Source of the DNA: Amoebophrya sp. A120
Taxonomy: Eukaryota; Protista; Dinoflagellata
Direction: 5' to 3'
Length of the DNA: 64,000 nucleotides
NCBI GenBank assembly: GCA_905178155.1
Contig: CAJINV010000003.1
Location: forward strand, 11,229,737 to 11,293,736
In this document: piece after piece, positions 8,886 to 58,100 of the stretch
Layout: every line of letters begins with the position of its first letter
Numbering within the stretch: position 1 is the first letter of the stretch
Program-made: the position numbers and the translations under genes
Notes under the pieces: model-generated
What the model was told of the DNA's origin: nothing
The model's database searches: none
Seen by the model: only the letters and a program-made list of their open reading frames with translations

Positions 8886-11800
8886 ATGTTTCTATTGCTC
8901 CCCAAAACTGCAGCAACGGCACCCCACCGTCGGGGATTCGGGTCGCCATCCTCCGCTCCTGGTGGGCGAATGTCCCGGACGGACCGTGTGGCGCTGAACA
9001 ATCGGGCAGAGTTTGGTATGTTGCACCAGCCCCGCACCGCTGAGGAGAAGAAACAGCATCTTGAAGCTCTCGGCTCCGTGCCATTCGACATGCAGGACGC
9101 CTATCAGGAATGGCGCAGCGAGCAGCTCCCGACGAAGCAGAAGGGAAAGACAAAAAACCCTTTTCTGCGCATTCGCGACCGGTACACCTCCGAAAACCAC
9201 GCGCTGCAGTTGATGCTGCGTGCTTGTGTGGAGATTAATCTGGCCAGGAATAAGAACTCGGCACCAGCACCGGGTGGAGGTACGGGCACCAGCTCCAGCG
9301 CGAGCGCGTCTATTCTGTCGTCTAGTAGTGAAGCAAAGGATAATATTGTTGTTTCTGTTGAAGGAGACGAAGCCATGACTCGTAGCCCACTGAAATCGAG
9401 GCGCAGATCCCCGTGTGCATCTAGCTCCACGTCATCTTTATTTTCCGCATCCGCTTCATCTGTGACTATAGATGACTCAGGGAACAAGAACTGTAGCGTC
9501 ACCCGAGGAGTCTCAGGAAACACAGATTTACCCGGTGGCTCAACAGCTTTATTGTCGGCGTCTCCCGGCAGAAGTCGCGACGAAACCGATCGAGAAAACT
9601 TGACGCCTTCGTGTCTCGGCGATCTCTTGCGAGACGTGGAAGAATATGCACCGCAAATAGGTCTGATTGCTGGTGTGCAAAATAAAAATTGATTGGGGTC
9701 GCACGAATATTTGTAAAAGTACGTGCTCGGCTCTCGTACCCTCGGTCTCGAAGTTCGCCACGCATGTAGTGGTGGAACAACGCGGACGCTTGATCATGTC
9801 TCGCGGAGAAAATAAGCGCGACCTTTCTTGTATTTTGTAATTGCAACACGCATGTTTATACTGCATATACAAGCGCTTTTTGCCAAGCGGCTTGAAGCCC
9901 GTCTTTTTTGTCTGCCTGCTGGAGTATTTTTTCATTTTCTGTTTATTGAAAAGAAAGCCCGTTCAGAGCCAGACATATTTGCAGTCGTGGATATCAAAGC
10001 AGGATCAGAAACGCACGACGCAGCGGCACGTTTTCGCGACCGCAAGCTGTGGCACGACCTCATCGTTGCAGCCCGGCAACAGGCCACCTCCAGTCTCGAG
10101 TGCGCAATGGCGCTAAAAGCATTGATAAAGTCGGGATGTTTTTCCCCTCCAGACTCAGCAGCGGAGACCCTGCTCTCAGAGCGTGAGGCTTTCGCAGTCG
10201 AAGACCTTTTGTGGAAAGCCGTCTACGAGCTTGCCGGCGGGTCGGCCGGGACCAGCTGCTTCGCGCAGAAGCGCGTGCTGTTTCGACGCATTCGCAGGGA
10301 GAACGGGACCGACCGGCTTCGGTCGCCACACTCGCTCGTATATTGCTTCCACGCGTTCGCGTACTTCCAGAGACACTTACTCGCCGTCCCCATCCTCGGC
10401 CCGGCAAGCGACGGAAACGCTTGTGAAGATTCGGGTAGAGGAACCGCGGATGGCGCTGTGCGTCCGCCAAGACTCCCTCTGCCATCGAATGCTGAGGCAG
10501 ACCAGAAAGAAACAACAGCAGCGCCGCGCACTTCGCGGCAAAATGTTCGCGGAACAATAAAAACCCGTGGGCCATCAAGTGCAAGTGGAGTGCCGATCTT
10601 GTTGAAGCTCTGTCAGGTCGCCCGCAAGGAGGTCACGCGGCACTCCTTTGTGGCGGAACATCTGAAACTGTCGCTAGAGCTCGCACACCACTTGTCGAGC
10701 ATACTAACCTTCGCTGGTGACCAGAAGTTTTTGTCCTCCGCGCCGTTCGATTCTGGCCCGGAACAACAAGCGACGTGTTCAATTCCTCTTCCGCAGCTTC
10801 GGGACCTACTTCGTAACGTATTCGACCACATCCAGCAGCACGTGGCTGAATGTCGCAGAAACAACTTCGAAGGCCTCTGTGGCTTGAAAGCTAGCGAGAT
10901 CTTCTTTGTCGTCAACGCATACGGGAGAACGCATAAGCTGTTCCTCCCGGCGGATGGTGCCCAACTACAGCAACAGGCCTCACTCCGCACGGCTAGCAGA
11001 CCCGATTTTGGACGAGGACGCAGGAGAAACTTCCCTCACCAGCAGAGAGCCAGTCCACATCTTGCGCAGAACAAAAGTACGCCCGCAGTTCTTTTCGAAC
11101 GAGAGCGGGACTCCAGGGCTTACCTCGATATCAGCTTTAAAGGTTTCGGCGTCTGGTGGGGGTTGTCGTGCTAGTTTGTCACGTCTGTGTATCATGTTGG
11201 TAGCGTAGCGTAGGAGGATCATGAAGAGCCACGCATCTTCGGGAGTTTTCCAGCAGTGGCTCTGTGTTGAACAAACAAAAAACAATTTTCTACGTACAGT
11301 GCATGAGAAACCGAAGTCGCTTCTTCATTTCGTGTGGCTCTGACCCGAGATAATTTGCTGCGCAGTTATATCAACTTAAAGCCGCAGTGAGCGTCAGGGT
11401 CAGATATGCATGACCATACAACCTGAGTCTCTGTTGCCGCGGCGTTACTGTTCTCTGGCAGCATACAACAGAACAAGACTCCAACACAGACCCTCTTGCA
11501 GATAAGCATGATAAAGTAAGAGTCATTTCAGAAGTGTCAGCCGCGCATTTCTGACCTAGACCTAGATAGATTGATAAAATCGCTGTAACAAAATTCCCCA
11601 CGACCCGCAGCACGTACAATTTTGCAATGAATAGCTGAGGGACTTCTGCAGTTTGCTCCGCTCGTGCACAAGGAGCTTGCGCAATTCACTCCCAACCAAT
11701 TAGCGGGCATCTTGAACGCGTTCGGGCACACTTCCACTTTTTTGAAGGTCAGCGAGATTCTTGACGGCGATCGAGATCATCGCGCACCCCCGGCGCATCG

Positions 11801-13652
11801 TCCTGCAACTCAGGTCGCCACCTGTCCGAGTTGGAATCAGCAGCGGACGGAGCGGAGATTCGCGCGCGCGCTGGTGTCCCTCTTTGCAGAAGTAGGTTCG
11901 CACCTGTGCGGCCTTCTGGCGGAGGACCCGCGAACGGAGGACCACTCGACGTCGTCCCGGAGAGCCGCGACACCTCCTTCTAGTGCGAGGAGCCACGATC
12001 TCCTGCCCAACAAGCTGTCGCTGCGCAATGTCTCCGTGGTCTGCAATGCCTTTGCGCAAGTGGGTATCCAGCACGAGCGGTGGTTTGAGCTCATCAGTCA
12101 GGAAGGCGCGGCCATCATCGCCGAGGACAGCACGCGCTGGAGCGCGGGAGGACGACGAGGTGGTCAGTCCGAAGAACACCGCAAGGACCTGGAAGAGTGG
12201 CAGCGGCAACTGACGATGATTGTGCACGCATACGGAAAGTTGAAGCTTTCCCGGCAGCCCAAGCACCTGCCGTTCCTTCTCTTTTTGTGGGACCGTATCA
12301 AATTGTCGCTGAAGCAGGTCGCATCGGCTCAGTCGATCGCACTCCTGCTGCATTCTTTCACCAAAATGAGGCTTGAAGAGGACCAAGACAGCAGCACGTG
12401 CAGTGGTATGCTGCCTTGCTTTGCGGACAGAATGCTCGCACTTGTCAGTACTAGCGCGGCGCTGCGACGAAGTTCATCTTGCTCACGCACGAAAACAAGG
12501 AACACAATTAGCACACTTACGATCACAAGCTTCGCATACGCACTGCACAAGAACGGCCTGGCGTCGTCCCATGAAATCTGGGATGCACTGGCCGCGTACG
12601 TGGCCCTGCTCCCGGATGACGCTCATTTTTTTTTCGAGGAGGAACAGGAAAAGCACGAACTTCGTTTCCGTGGGCAGTCTGCCCCAGAACCCTTCGAAAG
12701 CGTGGCTGTGCTGTCCAGAAATGCAAAAAGTGACATGGGAGGAGACATAAACAAAACGAGGCGCATCCAAAGGGAAATAGATGGGGCAGTTGTTCTTGCA
12801 CAGCGCCACGGCTTGGTCCAGGAGAGAAACACAGGAACAGCAGAGCTACGTAGAAGTACCTCAACCTCTCACGAGAAGCCCCACGAAGATGTAGATCTGT
12901 TCCGTCTATGCTCTGCAAAAGCTATCGCACTCGTAACAAAATTGCAGTCATGAAGATGCGCGAGCGCCGCGACAAATGTCTTCTTCAAATCCGAGCTCAA
13001 GTAACTCATGTATCACGTTCGCAACGCCTAGCCCTAGTGGTAGTACTTTTGATGATCTTCCCAAAATGAAAATTTGTGCTTGTCATGTGAACTCTACTAG
13101 TGCGGCAATGCGATGCAATACTTTTGCAATGCATGCCATCACTTGACCCCCGGGGAATTGGCGAACCTCTGCGCCGCACTGGGAGGCAAACGTGGAGCGT
13201 CGGTGACAAGGTTTTTCCATCGTGTGGTGGAGACGGTGGAGGGCAGGAAAGATGGTCTCGATTGTGTCATTCATCGAATGAATTTTCTCGAACTCTGCAA
13301 ACTGCTTGATGCGCTAGCAACGCACGCGGAAGAAACCAGAGCCCGGCAGCAGGAGGAGGACCAGCACGCACAAGCGGATCCTAAGAGGTGCCGCTCCACC
13401 TCCTCCCATCAATCCTTCTGTCTTTCCGTCTGTGCCTCCCAGAACCTAGTAGCAATCCTCCAGGCCGCCGTGGTAAATCTGGCTGCACCAGCGACGCCGT
13501 TCCCGGCCATTCCCTACCGAAACTTGCTCAAAAGTTTGGAGCAGTTGCACCTCACCACTCTGTCAGAAGACTTTATGCAAGCTGTCGCGGAAAGAATAAG
13601 CGCAGCCAAGAAGCACGAGAAAATGAAAACCACTGCTGTGCCAGCGCCCTGA
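8886..13652 (+). CDS. Helical-repeat (HPR/OPR/FASTK-like) putative organellar RNA-binding protein; exons ~8886-9644, 9999-11128, 11639-12906, 13141-13652
   Basis: Repeated motifs LKASEIFFVVNAYGR, FTPNQLAGILNAFG, LSLRNVSVVCNAFAQV, RQLTMIVHAYGKL, SAQSIALLLHSFTKM, LTPGELANLCAALG. Four same-frame ORFs join after introner removal. Confidence 0.75.
9645..9993. mobile_element. Introner, family A (TIR TATGnnnTGCAAATATGTCTGGGTCTGGAA)
   Basis: Ends tatgcaccgcaaataggtctg / cagacatatttgcagtcgtggata; flanks aagaa/tcaaa; 354-nt removal is in frame (DVEE|AGSE). Confidence 0.8.
11129..11633. mobile_element. Composite/nested introner, family A
   Basis: Degenerate TIRs with an internal TIR pair at ~11393-11561; flanks ctcga/gctga; 510-nt removal gives AYLE|GLLQF. 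Confidence 0.6.
12907..13135. mobile_element. Introner, family A
   Basis: tatgctctgcaaaa / ttttgcaatgcatg; flanks ccgtc/ccatc; 234-nt removal gives DLFRHLTPGELANL. Confidence 0.85.
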
Positions 13653-14440: not shown

Positions 14441-17075
14441 ATGTCTCGGTCGAGCCACATTTTGCTGCGGTTCGTGGAGATCCTCAGCATCATCCTCACT
14501 GAGATTGATATTGAGACCCAGACTATCCTGAGTGGTCATGGTTCCTTCGATTTTCACAGGCTTTTTGTGAAGGGAATCCAGGTTTGCGATGCGAACTGCG
14601 CACGGTGTCGTGTCTTTGCCCACCAAGTCAGTGGCTGCAATCCCGACCGCAAGGTGCCTTGCCAGACTGGATGGCACTGCATGGAGTGCCGCCCGGGATA
14701 CGAGCTGTGGTTCGACCGGTGTTTTCAGCCCTGCCCCGCCGGTTATTTTCGCTACGGTTACCAGTGCCAGCGCTGCTCCCTGAACTGTCTTGAATGTACC
14801 GGACCGCACCCGCACGAGTGCATCCGTTGTGCTCCAACGCACATTTTCGACGATCGTAAACTCTGCACGAAGCGGTGCCCCGACGGGTTTTATCCGGCGC
14901 TCGACGATGGGAAGACGGGCGCGACTGTAATCTACCCAGATCTTGGTGATGGTCGACGAGAAACAGTGGACTACATGGGCTGCGGCACGTGTCATCACAC
15001 CTGCAAAACTTGTCGCAGCTGGACAGCAATCGCTTGCACTTCGTGCGACGCCGAGAGCTACTTTCGTCCTATCTTCTTTGCTGCAAACGCAGGCATCACC
15101 GAAAGACAGCCGCCAGGAACGGGCGAATGCGTAAAAACGCCAAATCTTAGGTATTTTCAATCCTGTTGCGCTTCCTAGATTCTGATCGTTAAGATGCTCT
15201 GTCGTGGAATACTTCTAGATGTTTACGCCAAATAGATCTGTATACTGCTACGCTTCTAGGCCAAAGCTAAAGCAGAGTAGCGTACTCGCGAGACAGCGTG
15301 CTCGCGTAGGGCTACTATGCAGACGAGTACAACGAAGCAGCGTACTCGCGAATCGCGTCGCACGCGCAGATTGCATAATTTCTTCATTCGCATACGCATT
15401 CCAAGAAGCAACAAGCTGCTAGAACTAGAAAGAAAGGCTTCGTGGATATCAAGTCATCTTCTGTATTCACTATATTAAGTCTCTCCATGATATTAAAAAC
15501 TTGCAAGGTTCTATCGCCGCAAGCCCGAGGATACGCGTCAATACGAGTGTCCAGAGGGAACGTTGGAGTGCGAATCTTCGTGGAGGGCATTTCGGTGCGA
15601 TCCCAGCACTCACTTCCCCCCTATCATTCAAGCCGATCAGGTTCCGTAGAAAATGCAAATATGTCCGGGTCTGCAAAAGTGCAACGCTTGGCATGCGTAT
15701 TTTACGTGACCCATGATGTGTAGTGTGTGTCCCAGCACCAAAGATGTTTTGCCTGCTCTTTCCTTTTGATGCCTATCCGGCATAGCAAAAAAACTAAATA
15801 TTCTCTCTACGTAGCAAAAACTGGACTCCTTTGACCGTTCACGGAACACAGATTTTTTCAGAGTCCAAAAGTGACATCACTCACAAGTTGTACCCTTCCA
15901 GGCCCAGACATGATGTTTGCACACGCATACTGCGAAGTGCCATGCCATTCAGCAGCTGGATCAGAGCTCCATCACCGCCGAAACCTACCTGGGCGACGCA
16001 GTGAACAACCCAGGCGCACCGTCGTGGTCGAGTGTGAGTGACGTCGCGTTGGAGGGTCTCGGCGTCATGACCGCGGCCGCTGCTGCGTCGTCATCGACGG
16101 TTTTACGGCAATTAGTCACGAAGTGGCTCCGCCGCCAGTTACACGAGCGAGACGTCAAGCGACAAACAACGACGCCTGCGCCGCTATGGGTGTGTCAGGA
16201 TTGAAATCGTCAAAGTTGAAATAGTTTGTCATGCATAAAATGGATACCAATTAGCCTTACAGTTTGTAGTCGGTGCATGACAAATTTTCCCGGTCCTGGA
16301 AGCGAGTCTGTCATGCGGTTTAGGGCAAAAGAGCTGCCTTCTGTCATGCTAGTTAGCAGTCCAACTTTTGACCCTTACCAGGACTATGATCTGCGTCCCG
16401 TTGGTCCTCTGCAATAGAGTCACTTTTTGATTTTGTGTCGCATTTTATGCATTACAAATTATTTCAACTTTGACGATTTCAAACCTGACGCTTCCATAGC
16501 CGCCCCGTGCAGTTTACTCCGGCGAAGGACCCACTTCTACTTCTGGTGACGATATTTCCTTGTCTGCAGTCCAGCACCGAAGTCAGCCGGCCACAACAAC
16601 GCCCGCGCCGCACCTAGGAGAGGCAGGTGAAACACCGCGTCTGCGTCGACGCGGCGGCGCCTCTAGCGGCCTTCCAAACCCACCCAGACCCACCGAGCGG
16701 ATTGCGGAAAGTAGGGAGGACCTTCTTCACGACGAGAACGAAGTAGACGAAAATGGAAATGACTCGGAAGAAGGGTCTTCATCACCACCGGAGGACGAGC
16801 CGGGCCTTGCTAGTAGAGGCGGTAGCGCAACAAGACCATCTTCTCCGGTGCCAGGGGAACAAGTCGCTGAAACTGCAACGGACCACACGACCACCGCTGG
16901 CGGGGGTGCTGTGGTGGCAGGTAATAAACCCAGTATGGGAATGCACAACTACTGCCCCTCAACCTCATCTGGATTGCAAAAATGCCAAATCCTGTCTGAG
17001 CCTTATGGCTGTGCTTGCATAACAAGTTCTGGAAGCCGCCCTCCAAACTGCACTAATATACTCCGTCGTGCGTAG
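14441..17075 (+). CDS. Furin-like (FU) Cys-rich repeat protein, probably surface or secreted; 5' end undefined; exons ..15150, 15508-15646, 15935-16184, 16504-17075
   Basis: CPAGYF...CQRCSLNCLECTGPHPHECIRC and CPDGFY..CGTCHHTCKTC..ACTSC. Canonical GT-AG intron 15151-15507 plus two introners restore the frame. Confidence 0.8.
15647..15929. mobile_element. Introner, family A
   Basis: tagaaaatgcaaatatgtccgggtctg / caggcccagacatgatgtttgcacacgcata; flanks ttccg/ctgcg; 288-nt removal deletes an in-frame TAG (DQVP|KCHA). Confidence 0.85.
16185..16498. mobile_element. Introner, family B (~58-bp TIR TATGGnnGnGTCAGGnTTGAAATCG..TGCATAAAATG)
   Basis: Near-perfect long TIR; perfect 5-bp duplication GCCGC; 319-nt removal is in frame. 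Confidence 0.95.
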
Positions 17076-17155
17076 ATTCGTGATGCAAACAAAGACTGTA
17101 TTCTTGAGGTTGTTTCTGTTGCTAGAGATGCACTCGAAATGAGGGGGAGGGGGAA

Positions 17156-17889
17156 TTGAGTACTCTCATACCCAGAGGTGGCCCACCACGACCAGGAACT
17201 ACAATGCCCGCTGAGGAAGAAGAACATGGACAAGAAGAAGACCAGAGGGCACACGGCGGCCAAGAGGAAGAATCGGACGCACTGCCAGAGGAGGTGAGTA
17301 ACTGGATAAATCTGCACACGTACGTGTCGCCAGGCAGTATTCTTGAGAAGGCCATCCTGAGCGGCGAGGCGGGCAAAAATCTATCCACCCTCTTTGGCGA
17401 GCTGAACCGGACACAGGCGGAACAGGTTTTGTACCAAGCCGGGAAGCGGCGACTGCAGAAGGTAAAAGAACTGCAGCAGAAAGTGCAGAAAAACACAGAC
17501 GCGAAAAAGCAGCACCGAGAACGAAAAGCGTACGATGGCAATGTGGAGCGAGTGATGGGCGCCGCGTCGCACCGGGAGCACCAGCGCCTTCCTCGAAAAC
17601 GAAATCGCTATAAAGGAAAGCGCACAAGGGCCGAGGTGCTGCAGGCTGAAGCTCAAGAAGCAGCCGCGATGGCAAAGCAAGCGAGAGATCAGCAGGGATA
17701 GAGCAGCACAAATTCGCCGAGTTAAGAGAGATCTTCACAGAAGAACAGCCAAAGAAGATAACTGTGGCTGATGTACTACGTGTTGCCAGATATATAGCTC
17801 GATGAAAAAGCGGGCGTGTTGCAAAACTTAAGGACCGTGCAAGAAGCCTAGCACTGCTTAAAACGCAAATCATAAGGGAAAAACCATGA
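17156..17889 (+). pseudogene. Charged coiled-coil ORF, apparently frameshifted near 17698 with a further in-frame TGA; function unknown
   Basis: The 181-aa ORF is followed in a shifted frame by IEQHKFAELREIFTEEQPKKITVADVLRVARYIAR*KSGRVAKLKDRARSLALLK. Confidence 0.4.
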
Positions 17890-19139
17890 CGCGACAGCAC
17901 CTATGCATCTTTATTCTAGTACTCAACACGGCAGCGACACCGCGGCCAGCCATTCGCTAGGTATGACATGTTCTGATGCTTGTGTTCTACTTGGTGCTAG
18001 TGCACATGGTCGGTTCCTCAAGGTCGATCCTAGTGCTTTTTTGTTGCATGAAAGCGCTGTGTGTTCTGAAAGCCGCAGAGAATGTTAGCAAGAAGAAATC
18101 ATGGAAATGCCTCCTATCAGTCCTAGCTGGTCCGAGCGATCTATCAGAAATGTAACGACTACAGCGCTGACACATTGCTACCTCGTTGTTCGCGATGAAC
18201 AAGCAGTCCACGCTTCTTTGCAGTGCCGATACATCAAAAACCTAGCTGGAGTGAGTTTTCGTTCCACGCATTGGTGCACGTCGTGAACCAACAACAGTAG
18301 TACAACTGAGGGATTCATCATGTTCTTTAGCATTTCCGCAGAATTTCAATTTTTTTGACACAATAAAGAGGGTAATTTGAATAAACCATCTAGAAGTTGT
18401 AAGTCAAGTATAAACATAGTGGCCTTCATCAACAGACGTAGTTTCGCTACGGTATTTGTTACGAGGACTGTGACGCTTTACCTTTTCCATCCTCATCGCC
18501 CGAGCATGAAATGGCATGGGACAGCATTGCAGAACGAGAAGCGAAAGATTTGCTTTCTGACTCAGAATGGGAATGGCGCACTGAATGTCACCAGCAGCAT
18601 AGTCAATCTCATCCGAAGATGAAGATGGCCGCAAAGCAGAAATGCCACTCGATTGCCATTGCCTGAGGAGGTGAAGCTGACAAATAACGAAACCGGTTTA
18701 AGACGAGGTGGCACGACAAGGGCGACAATCTTCTGACTTTCCAAGAAAAGTCCCAGCTGGTTCGTGTTGCAACTTCCGGTCAAGAACATCCACTGTATAA
18801 TTACCTTGTTCCGCAATAGTAGTGTTTGCGATTGCGTTTGCGATACCGAACCCGACCTCAAAAGGTGGCAACTATTAAGGCCGCGAGACTACCGCAGCGC
18901 GTGCGTGTTTATCTGTGCTCCGAGCTGCACGGGGGCAACTACAGCAACGAAACACAACATCGCACTGTGCGGAGCTCCAGTAGCAGAAAGAAAGTCTCTC
19001 TGTCGTCCATCTTTCAAGTAAATTTGTGGCGGCAAGAAACACACAAGAGACGAGACCCGATACAAGACCACCGGAAATAAAACGGAGCCACAGCCGATCT
19101 GTCACGCCCGTGTCCTCGAATCGGAGCAACACACAGAAA

Positions 19140-22100
19140 ATGTCCTCCTGGCTGAACTCGTTACTTTTCCGAAAGGTCTTATGGCAATGTCAGGGGTGAA
19201 GGTCTTATGGCAATGTCAAGGGTGAACTTTGAAATGTTAATATTTGCGAAGTGCTATAATTGCATGCTAGACAGTGTGTTTGTCCATGTCATGCCCAATC
19301 GCAAGGAGTCGTGCCGTCAGTGTTTAATAGTACCTGACGGGCGGGTGGAGCGGCTAGATGGACGCGTGACAGGTGCAGTGGTCCTTTTGTGCCTTGTATC
19401 CTCACGCTGCAATGCGGCGTCAAGAACAGGCCTACTGGGTGGTTTTTTCACGCACACGCGTTGCGGCAAGTTGGACACAACTGCAGGTCTCTCAGACGAC
19501 CGGTCGTCTTGAATTTATGCCAGTCAGCACCACTGTAGGACGACTTTCCACCTGGCGTTTCCATAGCTGTACACTTTTCCGAATGCCCAGGAAGTTGAAG
19601 AGGTTAGGGACCTCGCCGAAGTATCAAGATGTAAACTGCCCGTGCCCCGGATTTCTTGCAAAGTGTTTCTCGCAATGCAGCTGCAAGGTGCTTCGTTCTG
19701 CAATGGCAGTCGTGGGCCTTGGTTTGCATTCTTGTATCGATGCCTCACCGTAAGCCCGAAGAGTTGACTGAGCGCCACACACAGCCGCAAAATGAATACT
19801 TCGTATTTGGTTGATCTCGCGCCACGGTGCAGACGGCACAACGAACGGCACGTAGTACATCAATTCCAGATACATATTTATCAGTTAATATGACTAGTAA
19901 AAAATAAGTAGAAGATTAGAAACGTCGCTCCTTCTTCGTGATGAAGATGAACTGTAGCAGCACATTGCCCGCTTGACATCGGCGATCAGTGGCTAGAATT
20001 GCTGGCTGTAGCTCTGTGCTATCTTGGTCTCCTTTGGCAGTAAGGCTGCAAGAGTAAAGACTTTGCATTTTTGGGGGCAGAGCAGTGCCTTTCACTTCGA
20101 GACGTGGGCGGCTTTGCCTTTGTGTCCCTGTGCAGGGATCCCAAAACAGGGGATCAATACGCTTTGAAAAAGATGATCTGCCAAGACAAAAAGAAACTTG
20201 ACCTAGCAAACAAGGAGGTACTTCTTGAATCTAAAATTTATTTGCAGTAGGTACTAGAGAAGAGAAATTATGAAGTTAGCGGTTTGATGATGATCGTGGA
20301 CCCTAGTTCTTTTTTCTGGTTCTGGGCTTCCTGCTATGCTGCGACTTGTTGGAAGTGCAATGCATTTCGTGTTGTAGTGGCGTGGTGTCTTCTATTTCAT
20401 GTACCGGCACACGCGCTCCCGTCCCTCTCGAGCTCGCCGCCGCAGCCACATAAGTACTAAATACCTAGCGAGGTCAAAAATGACAAAACCATATCGAACG
20501 CAAAAAGCAAAAACTTCATCTCGAACATTTATCAACCATAAAGTGGTGCTATATAATCATTATTCTTTACCAGGTGGCCATCCTGGCTGCCCTACCGGAG
20601 CATAAGAACATCGTGCGCTTCTACCAGTCGGCTCTGATCGAGCTCGCAGCGAGCGGTGGAGGTCCAGTGAAAAAGGAGATTGTGATGCTTCTGGAGTTGT
20701 GCGACGGAGGCACGTTGCTCGATTGGATCCTTAAGCGGGGCCCACAAAAACGCGTCGAAGCCGACATTTTGAAGCCATTGCAGGACGTTTCCGAAGCTGT
20801 TTTCTTGCTCCATTCGCATAAACCTCCCGTAGTACACCAGGATCTGAAGGTTGAGAACATACTACTCGGCAGCGACGGCAACTGGAAGCTATGTGACTTT
20901 GGCTCCTGGACCAGTGAGCGCATCGACCTCACGAACGCGACGCGACAAGAAATCATGCGCAGGCAGGATCACTATGAAGAGCACGTAGCTGCCTCTTGTT
21001 TCTGTTTTTCTTTTTGATGTTTATTACATTTGCTGCAGCATTCGTTTCAAATTCAATGATATGAACAAGTGCACTATTTCGCTCTGGTGTCGGGTATCGC
21101 ACTTCACGCACCGCGATGCAGTTCGATTTTAACGCCAATTTTCACGTACTTCTTGCACCCGCAGGTAACGATGATGTACCGACCTCCAGAAATGGCTGAC
21201 TTGTACCAGAAACACATACTACACCTTCCAATTGACCAATGGCAAGTCGGATGCATCTTGTACACTCTGATGTTTTACAAGCAACCCTTCCAGGATTGCA
21301 CGGCACCGCTCGCCATCGCGCACGCAGGGTAAGCATTTTTCGTATCATTCAAATATGAGTATAAAGCAAATTTAAATTCTTGTCTTTATACTGTTAGTGT
21401 TACGGACGCACTATAGGTCGCGGTCGGCGGTGGCCTCTTTGCATGTGCCTCGATCGACAAGGGCAGAGGCAGAGCTCCGCCTGACAGTAGCGCTCAGATC
21501 ACTGCTACGCCTACTCACTACCATTTTACTTTATAGAAAGTATATTTTTCTAATTGTTACAGTGTATCTGCAGCAACTGTGGCTTTCAAGTCCTAAGTGT
21601 AAGATACGCGTCGCAATAAAAAATGAAGAAGCGCCAGCTATAAATTTAAATGAGTGCTGTGTGACAGATGACACAGGACGAGGACGCAGTGGTTGTTTGT
21701 GCTCACATGACGAACATCTGGACAGCAAGAAGTGGAGCCCCAAAATTGAAAGCAAAGAAAAAAAACAATCTTTACTTTTACAAAAAAAGTGCCCTCGTTC
21801 TCATGATGGGGCCACGTGTAGTTTTGTAGTAGTACTTCCATAGGCCGCTACCCGGACGCCGTCTGGCCCCAGATCGTATTGCATAGCTTTCAAAGGAGAA
21901 AACGAGCCCGAGTTGTGTAAGAAAGCCGCCCGGGCTATCATTGCGAGGGTAACTTCTCAATACGAGCAAGTGCCAGGCTTCATGAGTTCTGCAGGCCGGC
22001 CGCAGTCTGCGCATGCACAGTGCGCAGGCCGTGCCGGTGTTGCGCAGATACGCCGACGGGTAGACGCCCACGCGTCTGCGCGGCCCGTTGGGTTCCCGGC

Positions 22101-25100
22101 AAGTCGAAGTGCACGGGGCGGGGGCGGATACTTAATTAAAATTGGCCGGCCTCTGTCGTGTCAAAGTCAACTTCTTTGCATGCCGCCAAAGTTTCGCCAC
22201 CAATCTGTTTTTCTGTGCTCTCGTCATCTGTGCAAGTCTCCCCCTTACAATAAACACAGCCTACAACTGGATTGATTCTTGATTGGCATCTGCTACCGCC
22301 CGGCCGCGGCACTGTAGACATATCTAGTACAGTAACTGCAAAATAAATTATCACTCATGATTGTATGACTACTCAGGTATGAACTTCCCCCGGACTACAT
22401 TCCTGGAGACACATACAGCGAAAATCTCGAGACAGTGCTGCACTGGTTGCTGGCACGAAACCCGGAGAGTCGGTTGACCTCTCGAAATCTGGTCCGCATC
22501 CTGTGGGAATGGGAAGGAAACCCATGCCTAGATCCTACGGAAGACGCCAACACATTGGTGGTTTCGCCCCCCATGGACGTTCTGCAACAGAAGCGGGAAA
22601 AAAGAAAAAAGTGCGTGGACAAGGCACAGCAGCTCTCTGTATCCACAACGAATTTCCAAACACGTACAAAGAACGCCAACGCGAAAACTTTTGCAAGAGC
22701 AAGACAAACCTTGCTATAATATCAATCCCATTCAGTATATGTCAAGCGAGATTCTCTAGAAAGTTGGCGAAGTTTGATGTGATGCGTTTTGTATTATGCA
22801 TCACAAATTGAAAATGTCCGTAGAGCCAACTAGTAATCCCGTTTATTCTAATTATTCTAATTCTAATAGAGCCATAGTAACCCGCGTTACAGGAGTTTTC
22901 ATCTCTCTGATGATGATGATGATGATGATGATGCTGAGCAAATTTGATGTCACGCGATTTCTATATGTTATGCTCATGCGAAAAAAGAGGCAGGCGGACA
23001 GAGGGCAAACAAGAGGTGGCCGGGAGGTCCAAAGATGTGAATGTGAAAAAGAGGCCATTAGAGGTGAAGGTGGCGCGAATAACGGACGACGTCTCGCGCA
23101 CGATCCCAGCCACCCCTGTGGCTCTGTGCCGGATTATTAGCGGGGACCTTCAAAGAGGTCAAAGGGAGGGCCTGCGGGAGATTCGCGAGAACGTAGAAAC
23201 GCAGCAGGCGGGCGCGAATCCGCACGGCGTGGCGCATACTTGGCGCGGCAGGCGACTCGCGGCCTGTGCGCTTCGGCTTTTTTTCGCGCCACCCTCTCGC
23301 GCCAACCTCTCGCGCAACCCTCCCGTGCCACCCTTTCGCACAGAGAAGAGCGGCGCTGGGAAATTGTTGACTGGGGTGGCTTATTTTGACTAGCGAAAAG
23401 CATAGCAGATTGGTGTGGCGTCCAGGTGCCTGTTGTTCAGCCCCAGTGTGCGGGGTAGTTGCTCCCTGTGCAGAGCGCCCACAGGCGCAGGGTGCGCGCA
23501 GATGCTGTGGGCGCATAGATATGCCGCTGCGGTCCGGTCGGTCCCTCTGCAAACACCTCAATCCCGGCCCAACAGCCTTACGCTCCGCTGGTAGCCGGAC
23601 GGAGCATCGCTGGTTTATGCAGGTGCGACGCTTTTGCGATGCATTTTGTATGTGTGCGGAAAAATTTGAATGCATATTTTGGCGCCGTCTACAATCCCGT
23701 CGCGGTAATGAACCTGGTAGAAACGACCTCCGTATCCGCTGCAGATATCTATGTCTGGGCGTAAAAGAATGCAAGACCTGTCACGCTTGGGCACCAAGAG
23801 AGAAAAATTTATCATGCGTGTTGCGCTGCTGCAACCCCAGTTTTGTCATGCAAAAACGCGACTTGTCATGCCATGATTCCGGAAGACAACATAGGCGCCC
23901 AAAAACTTGTCATGCGGAGGTCCGTCTTGTAGATCGGTGGTTGATCTTAAACTGTACCATCCACACACTTGCATCACAACTTTCGTTGAAGAGCCAGACA
24001 CATTTACAGCGCATATTGTGCCTCGTCTCCGGCGAGTCCGGGACGAGGGAAAACCTCTGGGGACGACTATGGATTGCAAGTATGTTCTGTGGCTCTGGCG
24101 GAATAAATGTAACTTGTCACGCAAAGTCTCCAACACAAAAATGCCTGCGTCGCATGAACGCCAAAAGTTTCCCAATTCTCGCTTGGGAAAAGGCGGACTA
24201 CTTCTCATGCGGAATAAGCATGGGGGAAGTCTCGCAAAATCGGTGATGCTTCTGTGTGCAGCATTTTTCCAGACCGTGTGTGACGTGGGAGGTCCTGGAC
24301 GTGGTCCAGCACGAGATGCATGACTACAAGTCTTGTATTCATCTTCCAGACCCAGACAGATTTGCAGTGGATAAGAACGTCGCAGGGAATAGTACTACCA
24401 TGTCCAGCAGCATTCTAACCAACCTCGGCATCGCGACCCGCGGCGCGGAGAAGCTTCGCGGGGTCGCTGCGGGCCGAGACGGCGTCGTGGCGCCGACCCC
24501 TTCCGCCCTCTCGCCACGGAGCCAGGAGAAAAGCCAAAGCGGGGCTGCAACTGGAACTGCGTCAGCGTTTCCCTCCTCGTCGTCCGCTGGGACAACGACG
24601 AAAGACCCGGCGAAAGAAGGTGGCGCCGCCGACGAGATGCAGCGGTTTCGCACGAAAGCTGTCGGCCCCGCAACGGCAACGGAACAGGAGACGTTGGCGA
24701 AAAACAGCGCGAAAGGCCGTGGGAAGAGGTTCAAAGGAGAAGACGACCTCCGAGAGGACAACAGCGAGCCCTCGAGCGCCCCGGCGGTGGACCTGCTCGC
24801 CTACATCAAAGACGAGTCCACCCCCGACTCAAAACCCTACCCTGCCCGCGGAGGCGGCACACGTAGCGGCGCTGGCGCAGGATCAACGGGATGCATCAGC
24901 AACAGCAAGGAATCGTGGGTCGCGGACTTTGGGCAACAAGGTCCGACCGACACGAAGAACGCAACGACGAGCCCCGAGGACCTCCTAGTCGCACCTTCGG
25001 TAGGAGGAGCCGCTTCCTCCTCATCTAGTACGGCACCAGGAGGAAGTGCTGGCGCGGCCGTCGACGACTTCCTGTATCCTGTGTAAAAACGCCCCCATTG

Positions 25101-26254
25101 ACATTCCAGACATCTTGTGATATTTGCATGCTCAGGATGTGCTGAATGTCTGTCATGCAGCGCAGCCCCATCCAGAGCTTTTTCTGATGCATGGGGATTT
25201 GGAATTTGTCAACATGGTGGAATCAGGATAAGGCGATCGATTTCTTGTGATGCGGCTTTACTAGTACCGCTAAGCACGACAACGCTGGAAGCAGGAAGCG
25301 CAAACGTATCACGCGCAAGACAAGCCTGTGGAGCTCATTAATAGCCAAGCCTTGCTGATTTGTGTAGCGAAAAAGCGCCCACCTTGACTCTGGGGTCCTC
25401 GTCGGGACGGTTTTACACACAGTATCCTGTTTGACGGCTTCAACATCCCAGCGGGAGACCATCAAGCGCGTGCAGCCACGGAGCCCAGTGATCGCAGACT
25501 CAAGCGACATCTCCAAGCCGGCACCGGCGACGGCGGGGACCTCTTCTCTGGCGGCGGTGGCGCTTCCAGTTCGTCCTCCATCAGGATGCCTCCTAGTGAA
25601 ATAACAGAAGGACTTTTTAATCCAAGCAACAACAGCGGGGCGGTAGCTTCTACTCACAGGGAGGGCCCATCTTCTTCGAGATCTACCGCGGGAGGAGCTG
25701 TAGTCGTGCCACCAGCACCACCACGACGAAACTTCGATGCGTTGCATCACGTGGATTCGGTATTAGCAGCCGAGAGCGCGGACCGAGCTGGACGAGAAGC
25801 AAACTTGTTTGCGGATCTGGAGCCCCCGATTCGCGGCGTTTCTCCCTCGCCGATTCGTGGCGCGGACGACCACGCCTCCGGCGCAGCGCCGTCATTGATA
25901 CAACACCTCGACGGCGGCGCAGCACAAACGACTGACACTGCCCTTGCATCATCCCGGCCGGCACCTCCCGCGTCGCACGGAGGCAGTGTTCATTTTGCCA
26001 GCACGGGCAAGAACTCAATGAGTAACAAGAACTTCTTGCCTAATCAACGATCCACCTCCGACTCTGCGTCACTTCCAAAGACCGGCGACGCGACTTCTGG
26101 TACCTCCCCGTCGGCTTCTGCACTCCCGGCAGAGCTCAGGCCCTCACTCTCCAAAAGAGATCCCTTCCAGGTGGATTTTTTCAGTTCTGCTGCAACGACA
26201 AATGGACAGCGAGACCGCGACAAGCTTTTTGATGACATTGACATTTTTAAGTAA
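19140..26254 (+). CDS. NAK-family (AAK1/GAK/BIKE-like) Ser/Thr kinase with long low-complexity tail; exons 19140-19179, 19571-19621, 20108-20217, 20574-20984, 21165-21328, 22377-~22714, 23682-23732, 24021-24067, 24379-25074, 25430-26254
   Basis: LAEGGFAFV, YALKKM, HKNIV, PPVVHQDLKVENILL, KLCDFGS, TMMYRPPEM, DQWQVGCILYTLMFYKQPF. Three canonical GT-AG introns (20218-20573, 20985-21164, 21329-22376). Confidence 0.9.
19180..19565. mobile_element. Introner, family B, left end tandemly duplicated
   Basis: tatggcaatgtcagg / cctggcgtttccata; flanks ggtct/gctgt; removal gives FRKVYTFP. Confidence 0.85.
19622..20102. mobile_element. Introner inside the kinase Gly-rich loop
   Basis: Degenerate ~60-bp TIR (actgc..tgcccc..tgcaaagt.ttt..tgcagc); flanks cgaag/cgtgg; 486-nt removal restores LAEGGFAFV. 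Confidence 0.9.
21391..22332. mobile_element. TA-flanked TIR element (Tc1/mariner-MITE-like) inside a canonical intron
   Basis: ta|ctgt..ctataggtcgcggtcggcggtggc versus gctaccgcccggccgcggcactgtag..acag|ta. Confidence 0.6.
22715..23676. mobile_element. Composite family-A introner with duplicated or nested left ends (alternative start 22792 with perfect TTTTG duplication)
   Basis: Right end atttgaatgcata; left-end motifs at 22715-22790 and 22792. The exact donor is unresolved. Confidence 0.55.
23733..24015. mobile_element. Introner, family A
   Basis: tatccgctgcagatatctatgtctggg / ccagacacatttacagcgcata; flanks ctccg/ttgtg; 288-nt removal is in frame. Confidence 0.8.
24068..24373. mobile_element. 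Introner, family A
   Basis: tatggattgcaagtatgttctg / ccagacccagacagatttgcagtggata; flanks acgac/agaac; 311-nt removal gives SGDD|VAGN. Confidence 0.85.
25075..25424. mobile_element. Introner, family C (TIR TATCCTnnGTAAAAACG)
   Basis: Perfect TCCTG duplication; 355-nt removal joins ORF 24256 to ORF 25586 (DDFL|FDGF). Confidence 0.9.
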
Positions 26255-27371
26255 AGACACAACAAAAGCTGCCGCTGCTTCCATCTTCATACTTCATCTG
26301 TGCTTGTTGCTACAAGTACCATAGTACAACAAGAACGAACCTGCTGCCAATAAATCGAAAGCAACCTCTCGCAGATTCAAGATCACGATGAAGAACTCAC
26401 AAACCACTTCCAATTGCGTGCCGGTGAAGATTTTTAGACGTTGCTGTTGTTGCGCCCCCGGCGGTGTACATGGATTCAGAAACAATAAATTTCAATTATT
26501 ACGCGGCTTATATATGATATTATCTTAGTATCTTCACGCAAAGAGAACGAGGGGCCTCGCGCGCATGTCGTCCAGTGGATCCATGGATTGATATATGGAC
26601 CATTTCCATTTCATTTTCCAGCGATCTCAATCTTTGCAGCAACGTCGACTTAAGCCATGGCACAGAAAAGAACGTGGTGCGGCCGCGCTGGCGAGTATGG
26701 ATCAATGTGAAGATTGTTATGTTTTTGTTGGCCTTGCTCGTTCATGATATTCATACATGCTGCATGTATTTGATCATAAAGTCTCTGCCTTGCCATGTCC
26801 AATCGCGCGCATCGGTTTGGAGTGTTGACTTTGACGCGCATCTTGTAGTATCGTTCGCGAAGTAGATCATGATCACACCTCCGTCACCGTCTTCGAAGAA
26901 AAATCAATAGGGGGACACGATCTGGAGCCCAACAAGATGATACCAGCAGAACAGAAGCAGCAGGTCTTGTTCGGCGATGAGATGTATTTAGATGAAATAG
27001 TTTGAGTTTCCGGATACTTTCGTACAACTGAAAAGTTAATTATAATTTCCAGTGTAGTTGAACAAGGTGACTTGTTCATCGAGACGCGAGAGGTTCTGGC
27101 ACCTCACCGCCATCCGACCGCTAAGATACTTAGATTAAATAAAAGCTCCAACGACAAAGCGAAAAGCTCGAATAAAAAGATGGCATCTTCGGCCTTTGAA
27201 AGTTGGCGTCAGGAGCGAGTCGCTCGCGGGCTCGAACGTTTGGTCGTTTAGTATGAAGAGAAAAAAGTTTGCCGCTGACACTGCCAATAACTTTTTGCAG
27301 GTTTTCTAGTATGCCAGTTTTTTCTTGCGTCACACACACACCGTCGTCTTGTATTTCAGAAACCGCAGATC

Positions 27372-28971: not shown

Positions 28972-29409
28972 CTGCTGCATGCTGTAGGGTCTTCACTCGT
29001 AGCGAGTACTTACTTTTTGTTTTTGTGTAGTATGGTGAGTACTCGGACTACGAATCTCGTAGTCACTTTGTTTTACATACAATAAAAAACAAAGTTATTG
29101 ATGCGCACCTGCTGCACGAACCCTGGCGCCACGGCCAACCGCCGTTAGAGCCACCGGTTCTTGGGGCTCGCGTCGTTGCGCACTCGTGTCCGACAAATCA
29201 ACCTAGCCACGTGCCGATAACGCCGGCCCTAATGAGTTGAAGACTACTTCTATCCGCATCCGCCTAAGAATGGGCGCGCCGGTCTTCTCTAGTAGGCCCG
29301 CTGTCGGACCTTGACCTTGTAGCTCCTCCTGCCAGCGCTATTTTGTTTTGATATGACGCGCTAGTTTTTCTTTTTCTGTGCGATAGAAGAGACAGGGGTC
29401 TACGGCACT

Positions 29410-55100: not shown

Positions 55101-58100
55101 TGCTCATTCAGTCTACTCTGATGTAATGGACGTGCTTGGAGATGAATTGTACGAACTTATAACGATGGCCGTCGAAAAACTGGGCGTCCAGCTTATTCCA
55201 GGGATTGGGCGCATTTATTTCATTCTGGAGCCGCTGTTTTACTTTATGAGCGCCGCGCTTGCCAGATTTATAGCCAACGCGCTCGCCGCTGCCGAGGAGC
55301 AAGCGGAAGCACCTGAGAAAGCAATGGCCACGTACATCGCGAAACAAGTCAAGGGCCTCCTCTATCCTACGTAAAAACGTCACCGCCCCAGAGTCGTCAT
55401 GCAAATCTGCAAGCCTCAAGTGGTCCAGTCCCCTGTCTGAATGGCGTTACGGCTTAGCGGAGAGTCTCGCCCCTTAGCCAAAGGGGTGCGCCGTCTCTTC
55501 CGTGAGAGCAAAAGCGTATGGCTTAAAAAGGGCGCGGTCCTGGGTCATCCTGTATATTTGGCTGTCGCACTTAGCTCACTGAAACTTGCTGGGCTTTATT
55601 GACAGGGTGTGGTGGGTAGGTCCAGGCCGGTCAGTAATTTTCTCGGGGCGAATTACCGGGTTTGCGACGGGCTTTTGGATGTTGAGGTCGCCGAAAGTGT
55701 TTCCTCGCCCACCCCCCACCCCCCCGGGGAGGGCATCCTTGGCCTGTGCCGCTGGGTGCGGGTGCCCACTGAATGATGACGATGCGCAAACCAATGAGCA
55801 GCACTTTCTCATGCTGTCTAGTACTTTTTGTTTTCCATGCTCTAATCAGAATAAGAGGGAGCTGGATTTGTGATGCGGCATCACTGCTAGCCAAACTAAA
55901 CACCACTACACTGGAACAAGACCACCCGAACTTGTCATGCGCAGCAGGCGAAACATGCTGACTTGTGTAAGCAAAGTTCCCATCTTGACTATTGGGACGC
56001 TTTTACTCATCTTGACGATGTGTAGGTGTAGCAGAATAATTCCCATCTTAACCATGTTCTCATCTTGGGCACGTTTTTACTCATGATATCCTCGTCAACA
56101 GCGAAACAGGAAGGCTGCGGGAAGAGGTAAAAGGAATCGTGATGACGATGGCAAAGATAGGGGCTGAAATTCTCCTCGGTAAAAAACTCTCGTTGTCGAC
56201 AAAACTCTCGTTGTCGTTCTTGTCCACGAACGACAACAACGAAAACGCTCGGTCGCTGTTGCCGGGACCGGCTCCAGCACCAGCGGCCTCTCTGGTTACA
56301 AATTTTGACGATGGCCCGGCGACAGCCGATTATAGCGGTTTTGGAGGGGGAAACGCCACCATTGCCAGTGCTTTTCCTGTTGTCCTTGATTTCAGAGCGC
56401 GCCACACTGGGAGGCGATCTCGGATATCGGTCGCGGGGGCGTCCGCCGCCATAAACTTCCGGGGCGAGCCGTTGTCTGCGCTGCAAGTACATGCATTGAA
56501 AATATGTCTAGGTCTGGAAACTTCTGATGCAAGGAAGGGAATAGTTAGACCTAGCACACTTTAGTGCGCTCCCCAGTATGACAAGTTTTTTCGTGGCTCA
56601 CAGTAAAAGTTGCGTACTCCGCATGAGAAGCCGCGTTTTTGCATGACAGACAAGAGGACCTGTTCGCGGGCACGCAACACAGAGCTCAGGAGAGTCTGAG
56701 TCATGCCAGACTAGCATGACAAATCGCGCAATCTCCCAGACCCAGTAATATTTGCAGTTCATAAAGTATCTTCCGAGCCCGTTCTGCTCGAGTTGGGTTC
56801 CGCGGTGCCTGACAGGTGGGTACCCACCTCGTTGGCACAGGTGCATGACTCACAGGCGCCTGGCGAGGATTCGCAAACGAGCGATTGGAAAGAAGGGATG
56901 GAGGGCCTTCTACTGTAGTACTGGACCCCGCTCAAAATACGAGCGGCGGAATAAAGCTGCAGAAACCCTGATGAACATCAGACCGCTTGCCGCGTACTAT
57001 GTGGCGCCAATTTATGAAAGCCAACCGCAACGCATGCGCCATGTCTAGAAAAAAGCAAACCGCAGCAAAGCCGGCCGCGCTTTGCGCTTTCCAACATTCG
57101 GGCCGCGGCATGAATTACTGGGGAAAGCTCAGAAAAGCACCCGCCCCTGTGAAATGTTAGGCGGGGGCCTGCGCTTCTCCTGTTTCGTTATTCGCGACGC
57201 CCGGCCCTGTTGATTTGGGGAGCGCCGCAGGCCGCGGGTGCTGGATCCCCGGGCGGAGACGCGGCCAGCGCGGGCTCTTGATGGGAATGCTAAGGGCGGG
57301 CGGCACGCGCTTCGGGGGCCGGCGGTTGCCTGCAGGACCCCCCCTGTGATTCCTCTCGCGCCCCTCTGTCCCGGCCGGCTTTGCCGGGCCGGCGACGGCC
57401 TCGGCGCGCGCCCGGCTATCCCTTGCAGTTAGTGGCAGGATGCCGCTATGGATCAAGCAAGGGGGGGCCGCCCGAACGGGGAGGCGCGCCGGTTCGGAGC
57501 TGCAGCGGGCAAGCATTGCCGGGCCCGGGGCCCGAGAGAGTGTTGCGCGCGTTCCCATCGCCCCCCCCGTCATTAGCGACGGATGGAAATCGTCCAGAGG
57601 CTGCTCCCTACATACCAACAAACGGAACGCGCGGGCGCGCCCCCTCCCCGTGGCGCCCTCCCCCCCTGGCTAAGCACGTGAGTGCGTGGAATAGCGATGA
57701 AGCAGGAGGCCCGCGCAGCGCAAACGATGACGCTCCGAGAGACGAGAGGGCCCGAGTATGATCCGAGTTGTTCCATCTCGTGGCATGGGTTCCCTGTTGT
57801 GTTCACATCGTAGGCCGGCCCCCCCCTTTGTGAATGATTCGCAAAGGGGGGGGATGAGGAATCCATACGACCTAGCCTCCTTGACTAGTAATCTGAGTTG
57901 AATTCTTTACATTGCCTAACTTGGCCCGCCGACCTCTCCCGCCCTTGTGGTTAATGGGAGTTTATTTCAATTGCTGGCATTGGCAATTTTGTTTCTGTGT
58001 TGTTTCGTCGTAGTTTGTTGGCCTGGAACCCTAGCAGCGCGCGCCTAGGCAGCGCGCGCCTAGTCAGTGTGGACCAGTGTCGGCGCTGTCTTCTGTGTGG

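Follow-up and report, generated by a model that had tools for sequence, protein, structure and literature searches.

Background

The transposon-derived introns (introners) of the marine parasite Amoebophrya A120 are already known. In the account of Farhat 2021 (PMC7789003), they carry an inverted repeat of the form TAT, 7 nt, AAA, have no fixed terminal dinucleotide, and show direct repeats of 3-5 nt across the exon/intron boundaries; its Table S4 gives N-T donors, with T second in all nine predominant A120 motifs. The passages of that paper covered here hold no single cut register, per-position repeat analysis, or arm asymmetry. Gozashti et al. 2025 (PMC12130899) describe the A120 families as TIR DNA-transposon introners, one of them LTR-integrase-like; the passages covered have mobilisation rather than the cut register as their subject. 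Nearly all spliceosomal proteins and U2, U4, U5, and U6 are reported present in A120, and U1 was not found. A120 removes tens of thousands of introns without consensus ends or a detected U1, and the results given here refine this known puzzle.

The nonconventional introns of Euglena (PMC12501133, PMC11282704) are described as likely MITE-derived, with inverted motifs that lie a set distance away from each cut; their boundaries are blurred by direct repeats, and their code was read from 'nonslidable' introns. A purine starts exon 2, pairing matters in knock-in tests, the spacers around the CAG/CTG-type motifs are 3 nt on the 5' side and 5-6 nt on the 3' side (PMC12501133), and release as circles is reported (PMC11282704). 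Fritillaria borealis likewise has non-canonical transposon introns with TIR and TSD, for which excision by an adapted major spliceosome is reported; their preferred ends are AG-AC and AG-AT (PMC11282704), whereas both terminal bases are free in A120.

Data and intron definition

The window is the whole 64,000-nucleotide stretch of A120 DNA that was analysed. Twenty-four elements were defined by transcript-contig joints, with the flanks unused; the contigs come from one sample, in runs guessed to be RNA. The first set of joints contained 12 TIR elements among the 15 of 26 rows listed, and the second, with 14 transcript rows among the 15 of 16 listed, added 12. In the probable DNA run X1, no joint skipping an element was present among the rows listed. 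The skip length, with placement free and blind to the flanks, equalled the element plus 5 nt in 21 of the 24; the remaining three were placed with that length imposed. The metagenome set consists of loci apparently from the same species as A120.

Introns are given below from 1 nt before the inverted repeat to 4 nt after it (register 4), with left and right flanks. Each non-canonical intron is supported by a transcript-contig joint unless another basis is stated, and those absent from the 22 flank pairs of the preliminary description are marked unlisted.

9644..13139, +, candidate elements 9645-9993, 11129-11633, and 12907-13135; with these removed in register 4, a frame of 1227 codons is open from 8871 (sequence only)
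15646..15933, +, non-canonical intron, element 15647-15929, TTCCG/CTGCG, joint in X3
16184..16502, +, non-canonical intron, element 16185-16498, GCCGC/GCCGC
16933..17174, +, non-canonical intron, element 16934-17170, CCCAG/CCCAG, unlisted
19179..19569, +, non-canonical intron, element 19180-19565, GGTCT/GCTGT, cut after base 4 or 5 needed
19621..20106, +, non-canonical intron, element 19622-20102, CGAAG/CGTGG
22639..23680, +, long non-canonical intron, element 22640-23676, CTCTG/TTTTG, unlisted
23732..24019, +, non-canonical intron, element 23733-24015, CTCCG/TTGTG
24067..24377, +, non-canonical intron, element 24068-24373, ACGAC/AGAAC
25074..25428, +, non-canonical intron, element 25075-25424, TCCTG/TCCTG, G instead of A at -7
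27180..37692, +, host gene of 15 elements, match to A120 protein P0121 (1456 aa, Pfam PF04130)
27251..27513, +, non-canonical intron, element 27252-27509, TTTAG/CTTAC, base 5 unequal, unlisted
27514..27524, +, 11-nt micro-exon (register 4) flanked by two elements; the ten letters between joint sides are 27514-27523
27525..27877, +, non-canonical intron, element 27526-27873, CAGAA/CAAAA
27963..28335, +, non-canonical intron, element 27964-28331, CAGGA/CGGCA
28410..28720, +, element 28411-28716, TTCCT/TTCTT, frame restored and fits P0121; no joint among those listed, outside the 24
29585..29901, +, non-canonical intron, element 29586-29897, CTTTG/CTTTG, high-copy family
30181..30724, +, non-canonical intron, element 30182-30720, CATAT/CACGA, base 5 unequal, unlisted, joint unambiguous (X3, X4, X5)
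31413..31752, +, non-canonical intron, element 31414-31748, GTAGC/GTAGC, unlisted (set aside in the preliminary description as the ambiguous case 31441)
31781..31952, +, non-canonical intron, element 31782-31948, CACAA/CACCA, unlisted
33050..33345, +, non-canonical intron, element 33051-33341, GTGAT/CAACT
33410..33713, +, non-canonical intron, element 33411-33709, GTGCG/GCGCG
34130..34433, +, non-canonical intron, element 34131-34429, CGCCG/GGCCG
34631..34936, +, non-canonical intron, element 34632-34932, TCGCA/TCGCA
35527..35858, +, non-canonical intron, element 35528-35854, TTCGA/TTGAA, also an unspliced contig in X4
35905..36294, +, non-canonical intron, element 35906-36290, GGGTC/CTTTC, unlisted
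36346..36898, +, non-canonical intron, element 36347-36894, CCAGC/CCAGC, unlisted
36974..37386, +, non-canonical intron, element 36975-37382, CTGCA/CTGCA, unlisted, also unspliced contigs in X4 and X5
55362..56767, +, candidate elements 55363-56088 and 56490-56763; without them a frame of 504 codons is open from 54394 (from the letters of the window)

Elements and target duplication

The window elements are the introners described in Farhat 2021 (PMC7789003). Exon 31956-33047 matches, at 100% identity, a protein recorded under Amoebophrya sp. A120. In the arm matrices, the inverted repeats start with TAT followed by 7 variable nt and then As, in line with the 8-20 nt repeat of the A120 introners. 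The elements form families (nearest-neighbour identity tertiles 0.80 and 0.87) with high summed X1 depth (5332 in bin 29344-29717 vs about 43). A minority family has repeat ends with TCAGG in place of the As.

The 5-bp target duplication named in the preliminary description was confirmed. Exact 5-bp duplications flank 271 of 418 metagenome copies, against 41, 6, 1, 0, 0, 0, and 0 for lengths of 2, 3, 4, 6, 7, 8, and 9, and matches to empty sites carry a single 5-nt copy in 16 of 16 cases, the same as a flank in 10 of the 16. The duplication, which falls within the 3-5 nt of Farhat 2021, arises on insertion; removal deletes the element together with 5 nt, and long frames are reopened (451, 937, 221, and 1352 codons).

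A hairpin with a short direct repeat is the usual setting of reverse-transcriptase template switching, and both features are present here in data that are contigs instead of raw reads. We nevertheless give almost no credence to template switches as the source of the joints: the two sides of joint 30180-30725 have no base in common where they meet, one register fits all joints, the frames require removal, and X4 and X5 show zero depth in some intron bins whose flanking exons are covered.

Cut register

A cut at or after base 4 of the repeat is required by eight joint-defined elements and a cut at or before base 4 by two, so that the 24 joints share one register alone, with the cut following base 4 at either side. 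Unambiguous joints put the start of the intron 1 nt ahead of the left inverted repeat and its end 4 nt beyond the right one, spacers of 1 and 4 nt as opposed to the longer ones of Euglena. The upper bound of the register comes from two elements (27252 and 30182) in one contig sample of guessed RNA status. Only three cases delimit the register in the metagenome set, L014 and L019 excluding 3 or less and L046 excluding 5; we infer that a single register is common to all copies.

The view that the cut is measured from the TIR therefore holds as to a fixed distance, with bases 1-4 of the right copy intronic and free to drift, as had been proposed, and the suggested 4-5 nt beyond the stem becomes 4 nt; on the 5' side, the cut precedes the repeat by 1 nt instead of falling at the stem base. 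The absence of a fixed terminal dinucleotide was borne out, with GT..AG termini in only 10 of 352 copies and GT and AG together in 0 of the 24 joint-defined introns at register 4. Because both sides are cut after base 4, the left copy of base 5 opens the intron, and the right copy opens the exon that follows. Base 5 can be A, C, G, or T, as previously stated, and its two copies are free to differ.

Identity at base 5

Base 5 had been described as invariant, from 32 mismatches in 88 sites at positions 1-4 and 0 in 22 at position 5. The arithmetic is right (7, 8, 10, 7, and 0 mismatches), and the position-5 deficit in that list has P=1.2e-4, or 6.5e-4 as the best of five positions. Twenty-one of the 22 pairs lie at TAT-type inverted-repeat ends, and the pair actag/cgtag has no matching element. 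The closest candidate for that pair, 22834-23191 (arm identity 7/14), is within the long intron 22639-23680.

The list of 22 is an unfair sample: it includes 15 of the 24 joint-defined elements, and both base-5 mismatches are among the nine left off. Mismatches at positions 1-5 number 7, 6, 10, 8, and 2 in the 24 elements (position 5, 2/24 vs 31/96 at positions 1-4, P=0.0099; 0.049 as the best of five positions) and 3, 1, 3, 2, and 2 in the nine (P=0.62). In 119 diverged metagenome copies they number 38, 35, 15, 37, and 39, with 32.8 expected at each, and base 5 shows no conservation there (P=0.92 for position 5). The share of mismatches at position 5 is 2/33 in the window vs 39/164 in the metagenome set (Fisher P=0.02). 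The metagenome set also has a deficit at position 3 (11 vs 29 expected), which is outside what the fixed-register model explains.

The base-5 identity rule is false. Elements 27252 and 30182, with unequal base 5, were removed exactly, the former with the same micro-exon letters in three runs and the latter with an unambiguous joint in X3, X4, and X5 (three runs, one sample in both cases), and contigs 27100-27863 and 29849-30829 of the probable DNA run X1 confirm the sequence of both loci with 0 differences. Base 5 also differs in 31 of 105 diverged clean metagenome copies in open coding frames. Against these, a strict need for a 1-nt identity between donor and acceptor has the 0/22 of the hand-picked list in its favour and retains a negligible probability; the 0/22 itself would reflect by-eye selection and chance. 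A routine +1 slide is likewise unsupported: the transcript at 27252 keeps the right-copy base 5 where the left-copy base would make a TAG stop, and the annotated A120 protein P0121 carries the register-4 residue, Lys, at 30182. Had the rule held, it would have given splicing a new and remarkable principle; it fails under unbiased sampling.

An improbable variant is that base-5 identity, though not required, is slightly promoted among old introns by infrequent coupled +1 slips or by greater efficiency. The window deficit and the old metagenome copies (n=40; 16, 15, 15, 18, and 10 mismatches, diluted by mis-paired ends; P=0.065-0.069) lean that way, and a weak bias in the old copies is compatible with the data at P=0.07. 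Stricter filters on the old copies give P=0.10-0.35, however, the position-5 ratio in 373 clean metagenome copies is 1.31 (95% 0.85-1.89), the nine unlisted elements show nothing, and a slip at 27252 leads to a stop.

Hairpin pairing

The RNA hairpin itself might serve as the ruler, with sequence irrelevant. Pairing of the arms is predicted (at least 0.5) in 16 of 24 folded elements, including 27252 and 30182, but eight others were removed although their arms are predicted unpaired (<0.2), with the qualification that equilibrium folds can miss pairing held by protein. Arm changes that preserve G-U pairs and those that form A-C are equally frequent (229 vs 226 in the metagenome set, 36 vs 31 in the window), with no sign in either of selection on pairing, unlike the knock-in results in Euglena, and the third-base bias described below runs opposite to the G-U prediction (anti-wobble). 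We consider a pure hairpin ruler very improbable.

Direction-dependent bases and proposed mechanism

The inverted-repeat ends are constrained by transcript direction, with U+2 and A+3 kept at the start of the intron and A-7 at its end. Among 489 copies, the TA of the repeat end (U+2/A+3) is altered in 2 cases at the 5' end and in 15 at the 3' end (P=0.002), and the third repeat base in 21 vs 4 (A at -7; P=0.0009). In 373 copies oriented by the flanks alone, the third base has 15 vs 1 changes (P=0.0005), and this holds on both contig strands. In the openly available text of the papers searched, neither the +1/-4 register nor the 5'/3' asymmetry was found.

The reading that we hold with slightly more confidence than doubt is that these are fixed-register introns whose repeat ends a spliceosome would read as stand-in splice signals; the machine is likely a spliceosome with relaxed requirements that recognises N-UA together with a branch A at -7. 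N-U-A would act as a donor resembling GUA with its first base free, and A-7 would be the putative branch adenosine, from which the 3' cut would be counted with no need for AG. The symmetric TAT...ATA repeat would supply both signals in either orientation, so that any insertion would be spliceable. Insertion direction in the metagenome set is 185 vs 185 among 465 copies, 95 of which have no assigned orientation. U2-type spliceosomal introns share U+2 and A+3 with these introns but not G+1 or AG. A canonical donor is expected to have G at +5; no such preference was seen at the 5' arm (177 vs 171). From the spliceosomal reading follow point predictions, namely a lariat at A-7 and loss of splicing on changing U+2, A+3, or A-7 but not base 5 or arm pairing. 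Where alignment programs give no unique A120 intron border, the register also supplies a rule for setting it.

A dedicated non-spliceosomal or second machine, as proposed for Euglena, could read the repeat ends in the same register and may release circles. Such a machine would suit the dispensable AG and G+1, the undetected U1, and the fixed spacers and circles of Euglena. It is rather unlikely, since the constrained bases sit exactly in the canonical donor register (U+2, A+3) with an adenosine near the 3' end, T is second in the predominant motifs of A25 too, and the first base of exon 2 shows no purine bias (observed/expected A 97/91, G 100/111, P=0.67, n=352), unlike in Euglena. A broader proposal, possible though doubtful, is that a dedicated machine or a rebuilt U1-less spliceosome reads three terminal repeat bases as a portable splice code, cutting 1 nt before UA and 7 nt after A, which would make insertions harmless in either orientation and converge with the Euglena system in an unrelated lineage. 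Exceptions to the direction-dependent bases occur in the window: element 25075 has G at -7 and was removed all the same, and candidate element 56490 begins N-CA.

Identity of the elements

The elements in the window carry arms made of TAT, 7 variable bases and As, a pattern that fits the A120 introner elements described in the available portions of Farhat et al. 2021 (PMC7789003) as a TAT-started repeat with 7 variable bases and As. Because of this match, and because the exon at 31956-33047 shows 100% identity to an Amoebophrya sp. A120 protein of 1456 aa (the sole match of 7990 candidates scored), the elements are already known. The intron system itself is known, and the matter at issue is the claimed rule that base 5 of the 5-bp target duplication is identical on both sides of each element.

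Transcript joints in the window

Contigs of three runs from one sample (X3, X4, and X5, RNA by guess) were aligned to 15500-35400 and 27100-38300. The 15 joints listed of 26 in the first region were three GT-AG introns and 12 elements. For the second region, 15 of 16 joints were listed, 14 of them from the transcript runs; three repeated earlier rows, another was split by a micro-exon, 12 elements were added, and the 15th row was a repeat cross-over seen in X1 alone. X1, a probable DNA run, covered 30 of 30 bins with zero differing letters, and an element-skipping joint was not seen among its rows listed. Removal of the elements left open frames of 451, 937, 221, and 1352 codons.

The 24 elements defined by these joints form the RNA set, from which element 28411 was left out. 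With free placement of the repeat ends, the skipped length equaled the element plus 5 in 21 of the 24; the remaining three (starts TAG, TAC, and TAT) were set under that constraint, and RNA-set statistics were taken after this placement. A first automated pairing of ends in the window was noisy from internal repeat-like motifs and was excluded from the counts. Unspliced contigs crossed the elements at 35528 (X4) and 36975 (X4 and X5) and may represent pre-mRNA, retention, or DNA.

Three further structures were observed. An 11-nt micro-exon (27514-27524) between two elements was included exactly in X3, X4, and X5. The element at 37747-37903 (flanks GAAGT/AAAAT) lies right after the stop codon at 37692, and transcript contigs enter it unspliced and stop inside at 37849 and 37856. 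At 19180 the first 26 bases and the left flank are in tandem duplicate (19180-19230, second copy at 19206), and the cut is at the first copy.

Cut register

Two elements with unequal base 5 were removed exactly:

30182-30720: flanks CATAT/CACGA; joint 30180-30725 with zero ambiguous bases in X3, X4, and X5
27252-27509: flanks TTTAG/CTTAC; the micro-exon starts with the right-copy C

The DNA sequence of the first was confirmed by an X1 contig, and its residue in P0121, the 1456-aa protein whose gene hosts 15 elements, is Lys (cut after base 4) and not Ile (cut after base 5). In the second, the left-copy G in place of the right-copy C would create TAG. Eight elements require the cut to fall no earlier than base 4, and two require it no later than base 4. 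The register fitting 24 of 24 joints, here register 4, takes the intron as left base 5, the element, and right bases 1-4; this single-register fit assumes the same register in all copies, and its upper bound comes from two elements. The proposal that the cut is measured from the terminal inverted repeat is thereby supported in the form of a fixed register. The register (+1/-4) also agrees with the nine predominant A120 motifs in Table S4 of PMC7789003, which all have T second. At 30182-30200 the left arm exceeds the right by 3 nt before the shared A-run and the cut is still 1 nt before TATG; the register is therefore fixed by the terminal bases and not by the A-run.

In the metagenome loci, register 4 is bracketed by three predicted junctions. 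Testing the register by coding likelihood proved unreliable: with 119 copies, 1526 of 2000 resamples favoured register 4, with 108 copies only 638 of 2000 did, and the known set of the window was assigned register 3. Neither the register nor the arm asymmetry described below appears in the literature surveyed, including the accessible parts of PMC12130899, PMC11453091, and PMC12621601; Fig. 3 and Figs. S19-S25 of PMC7789003 and the datasets of PMC12130899 may bear on both.

Base-5 identity of the flanks

The preliminary description had listed 22 hand-picked flank pairs, of which 21 were placed at repeat ends and one (actag/cgtag) was not.

Mismatches between flank copies at positions 1, 2, 3, 4, and 5
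Preliminary list (22 pairs): 7, 8, 10, 7, 0
RNA set (24 elements): 7, 6, 10, 8, 2
RNA-set elements absent from the list (9): 3, 1, 3, 2, 2
Metagenome copies with 1-3 mismatches (119): 38, 35, 15, 37, 39
Diverged copies, sensitive caller (154): 48, 44, 32, 52, 43
Oldest of these diverged copies (40): 16, 15, 15, 18, 10

The arithmetic of the list was reproduced on recounting (P=1.2e-4 under within-element exchangeability), a value that carries weight only if the list is unbiased. Invariance of base 5 held within the list and failed in 2 of 24 elements of the RNA set (P=0.0099; best-of-five 0.049); both exceptions are absent from the list. A synonymous-site explanation for them was ruled out, one slip giving a stop and the other Lys to Ile. 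With these two elements removed exactly and position 5 not conserved in the metagenome, the strict identity rule is refuted. The preliminary observation is borne out in part. The GC/AT direction of flank mismatches showed no polarity, and tests lent no support to pairing between the left base 5 and the right base 1 or to hairpin extension through flank changes.

Metagenome copies

A pattern scan returned 127 stretches, giving 122 loci (783 kb), or 119 once merged. One gene compared with A120 gave nine aligned pieces at 91-100% identity, seven of them at ≥98.6%; judged from sequence identity, the loci probably come from the same species, and two or more alleles are represented among them. An A120 ortholog of one locus (L023) was searched for and not found. 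Flank-blind matrices yielded 485 end pairs. The 5-bp repeat was masked before strand and frame were assigned from the neighbouring exons; calls were consistent inside each locus, and one oriented call lacked coding signal. When 74 exon pieces were scanned against Pfam, one junction fell within a conserved motif.

The duplication was perfect in 271 of 418 non-redundant coding copies, and 16 empty-site matches, 5 of them tandem paralogs of the same locus, each had a single 5-nt copy. The 271 identical copies and 28 of the 418 with 4-5 mismatches (probable mis-pairs) were dropped from position tests. Among the 119 copies left, positions 1 and 5 were not lower than 2 and 4, so strand errors cannot mask a position-5 effect. 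The clean set (373 copies, omitting those >400 nt and double ones) had a position-5 ratio of 1.31 (0.85-1.89). Metagenome copies are younger than those in the window. A more sensitive caller, which at its threshold made 12 true calls in the window and no false ones (a check that is circular for the matrix), gave 521 copies; for its 40 oldest diverged copies P was 0.065 (0.10-0.35 under stricter filters), and 0.069 for position 5 when oldest copies were pooled with the nine unlisted window elements. A weak base-5 bias in old introns is possible, with low probability.

Position 3 had about 2.5-fold fewer mismatches than the others in the metagenome loci (15 vs 32.8 expected, P=3.6e-5; 11 vs 29 with the base accounted for), irrespective of codon position or strand. 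It is the most diverged position in the window (10/24). One guess for the metagenome deficit is a symmetric DNA-level process during insertion. Target choice shows a mild palindromic preference in 352 copies (111 vs 85 for C at position 2 and 134 vs 110 for G at position 4; P about 0.01, uncorrected), and 169 of 352 insertions (48%) are in phase 0. Elements are present or absent between near-identical alleles (L008 4925-5074 and 17269-17551 vs L026; L047 vs L068; L029 vs L059), a polymorphism with clean empty sites that, at the sequence level, indicates apparent ongoing gain or precise loss.

Sequence requirements of the ends

Within genes the copies occur in either orientation (185 vs 185), and a difference between 5' and 3' arms therefore reflects selection on the transcript. 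Across 489 copies the first two bases were changed 2 times in the 5' arm and 15 times in the 3' arm (P=0.002), and the third base 21 and 4 times (P=0.0009); in 373 copies oriented by flanks alone the third base gave 15 vs 1, on both contig strands. The remaining arm positions, of 18 examined, showed no 5'/3' difference at P<0.02. In the register, the constrained bases are U+2, A+3, and A-7, and the constraint on them is sequence-specific. The third-base bias is the opposite of what G-U pairing would allow, and arm positions 4-20 showed no G-U excess over A-C mismatches (229 vs 226). Folding of the 24 elements predicted 8 as unpaired. In one of the removed introns the -7 base is G.

The suggestion that no fixed dinucleotide consensus exists was borne out, as the terminal bases are free: GT..AG occurred in 10 of 352 copies, and neither it nor AG (35 vs 28 expected) was preferred at insertion. 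G+5 was not favoured, and the first base of exon 2 showed no purine bias in metagenome copies.

Candidate mechanism

The elements carry a 5-bp duplication and are removed exactly, in one register. The canonical donor is GURAG, the branch is an adenosine, and some protists have short fixed branch-to-acceptor distances. We infer, with moderate confidence, that removal is by a spliceosome with relaxed termini, which would take N-UA as donor, use A-7 as branch, and reach the 3' cut by counting from A-7. PMC7789003 reports almost the full set of spliceosomal proteins in A120, together with U2, U4, U5, and U6; U1 was not found. The main rival, a distinct machinery of the kind put forward for Euglena, is considered rather unlikely; in its favour, the nonconventional introns of Euglena likewise use fixed spacers, as the A120 elements do (PMC12501133 and PMC11282704, in the portions available). 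A fixed register with a three-base signal is supported.

Other repeats

A repeat of ~165 nt with TGTTA...TAACA ends, outside the TAT families, lies at L020 161 and recurs in 12 or more further loci. In the window, 38000-54300 is long and gene-poor; its repeats are nested, and TAT-type pairs are sparse. A 30-nt stretch is duplicated at 1465-1494 and 7411-7440 (regions 844-1484 and 6564-7430), flanking a long minus-strand coding region at 2135-5851; these repeats possibly belong to a larger repeated or mobile unit.
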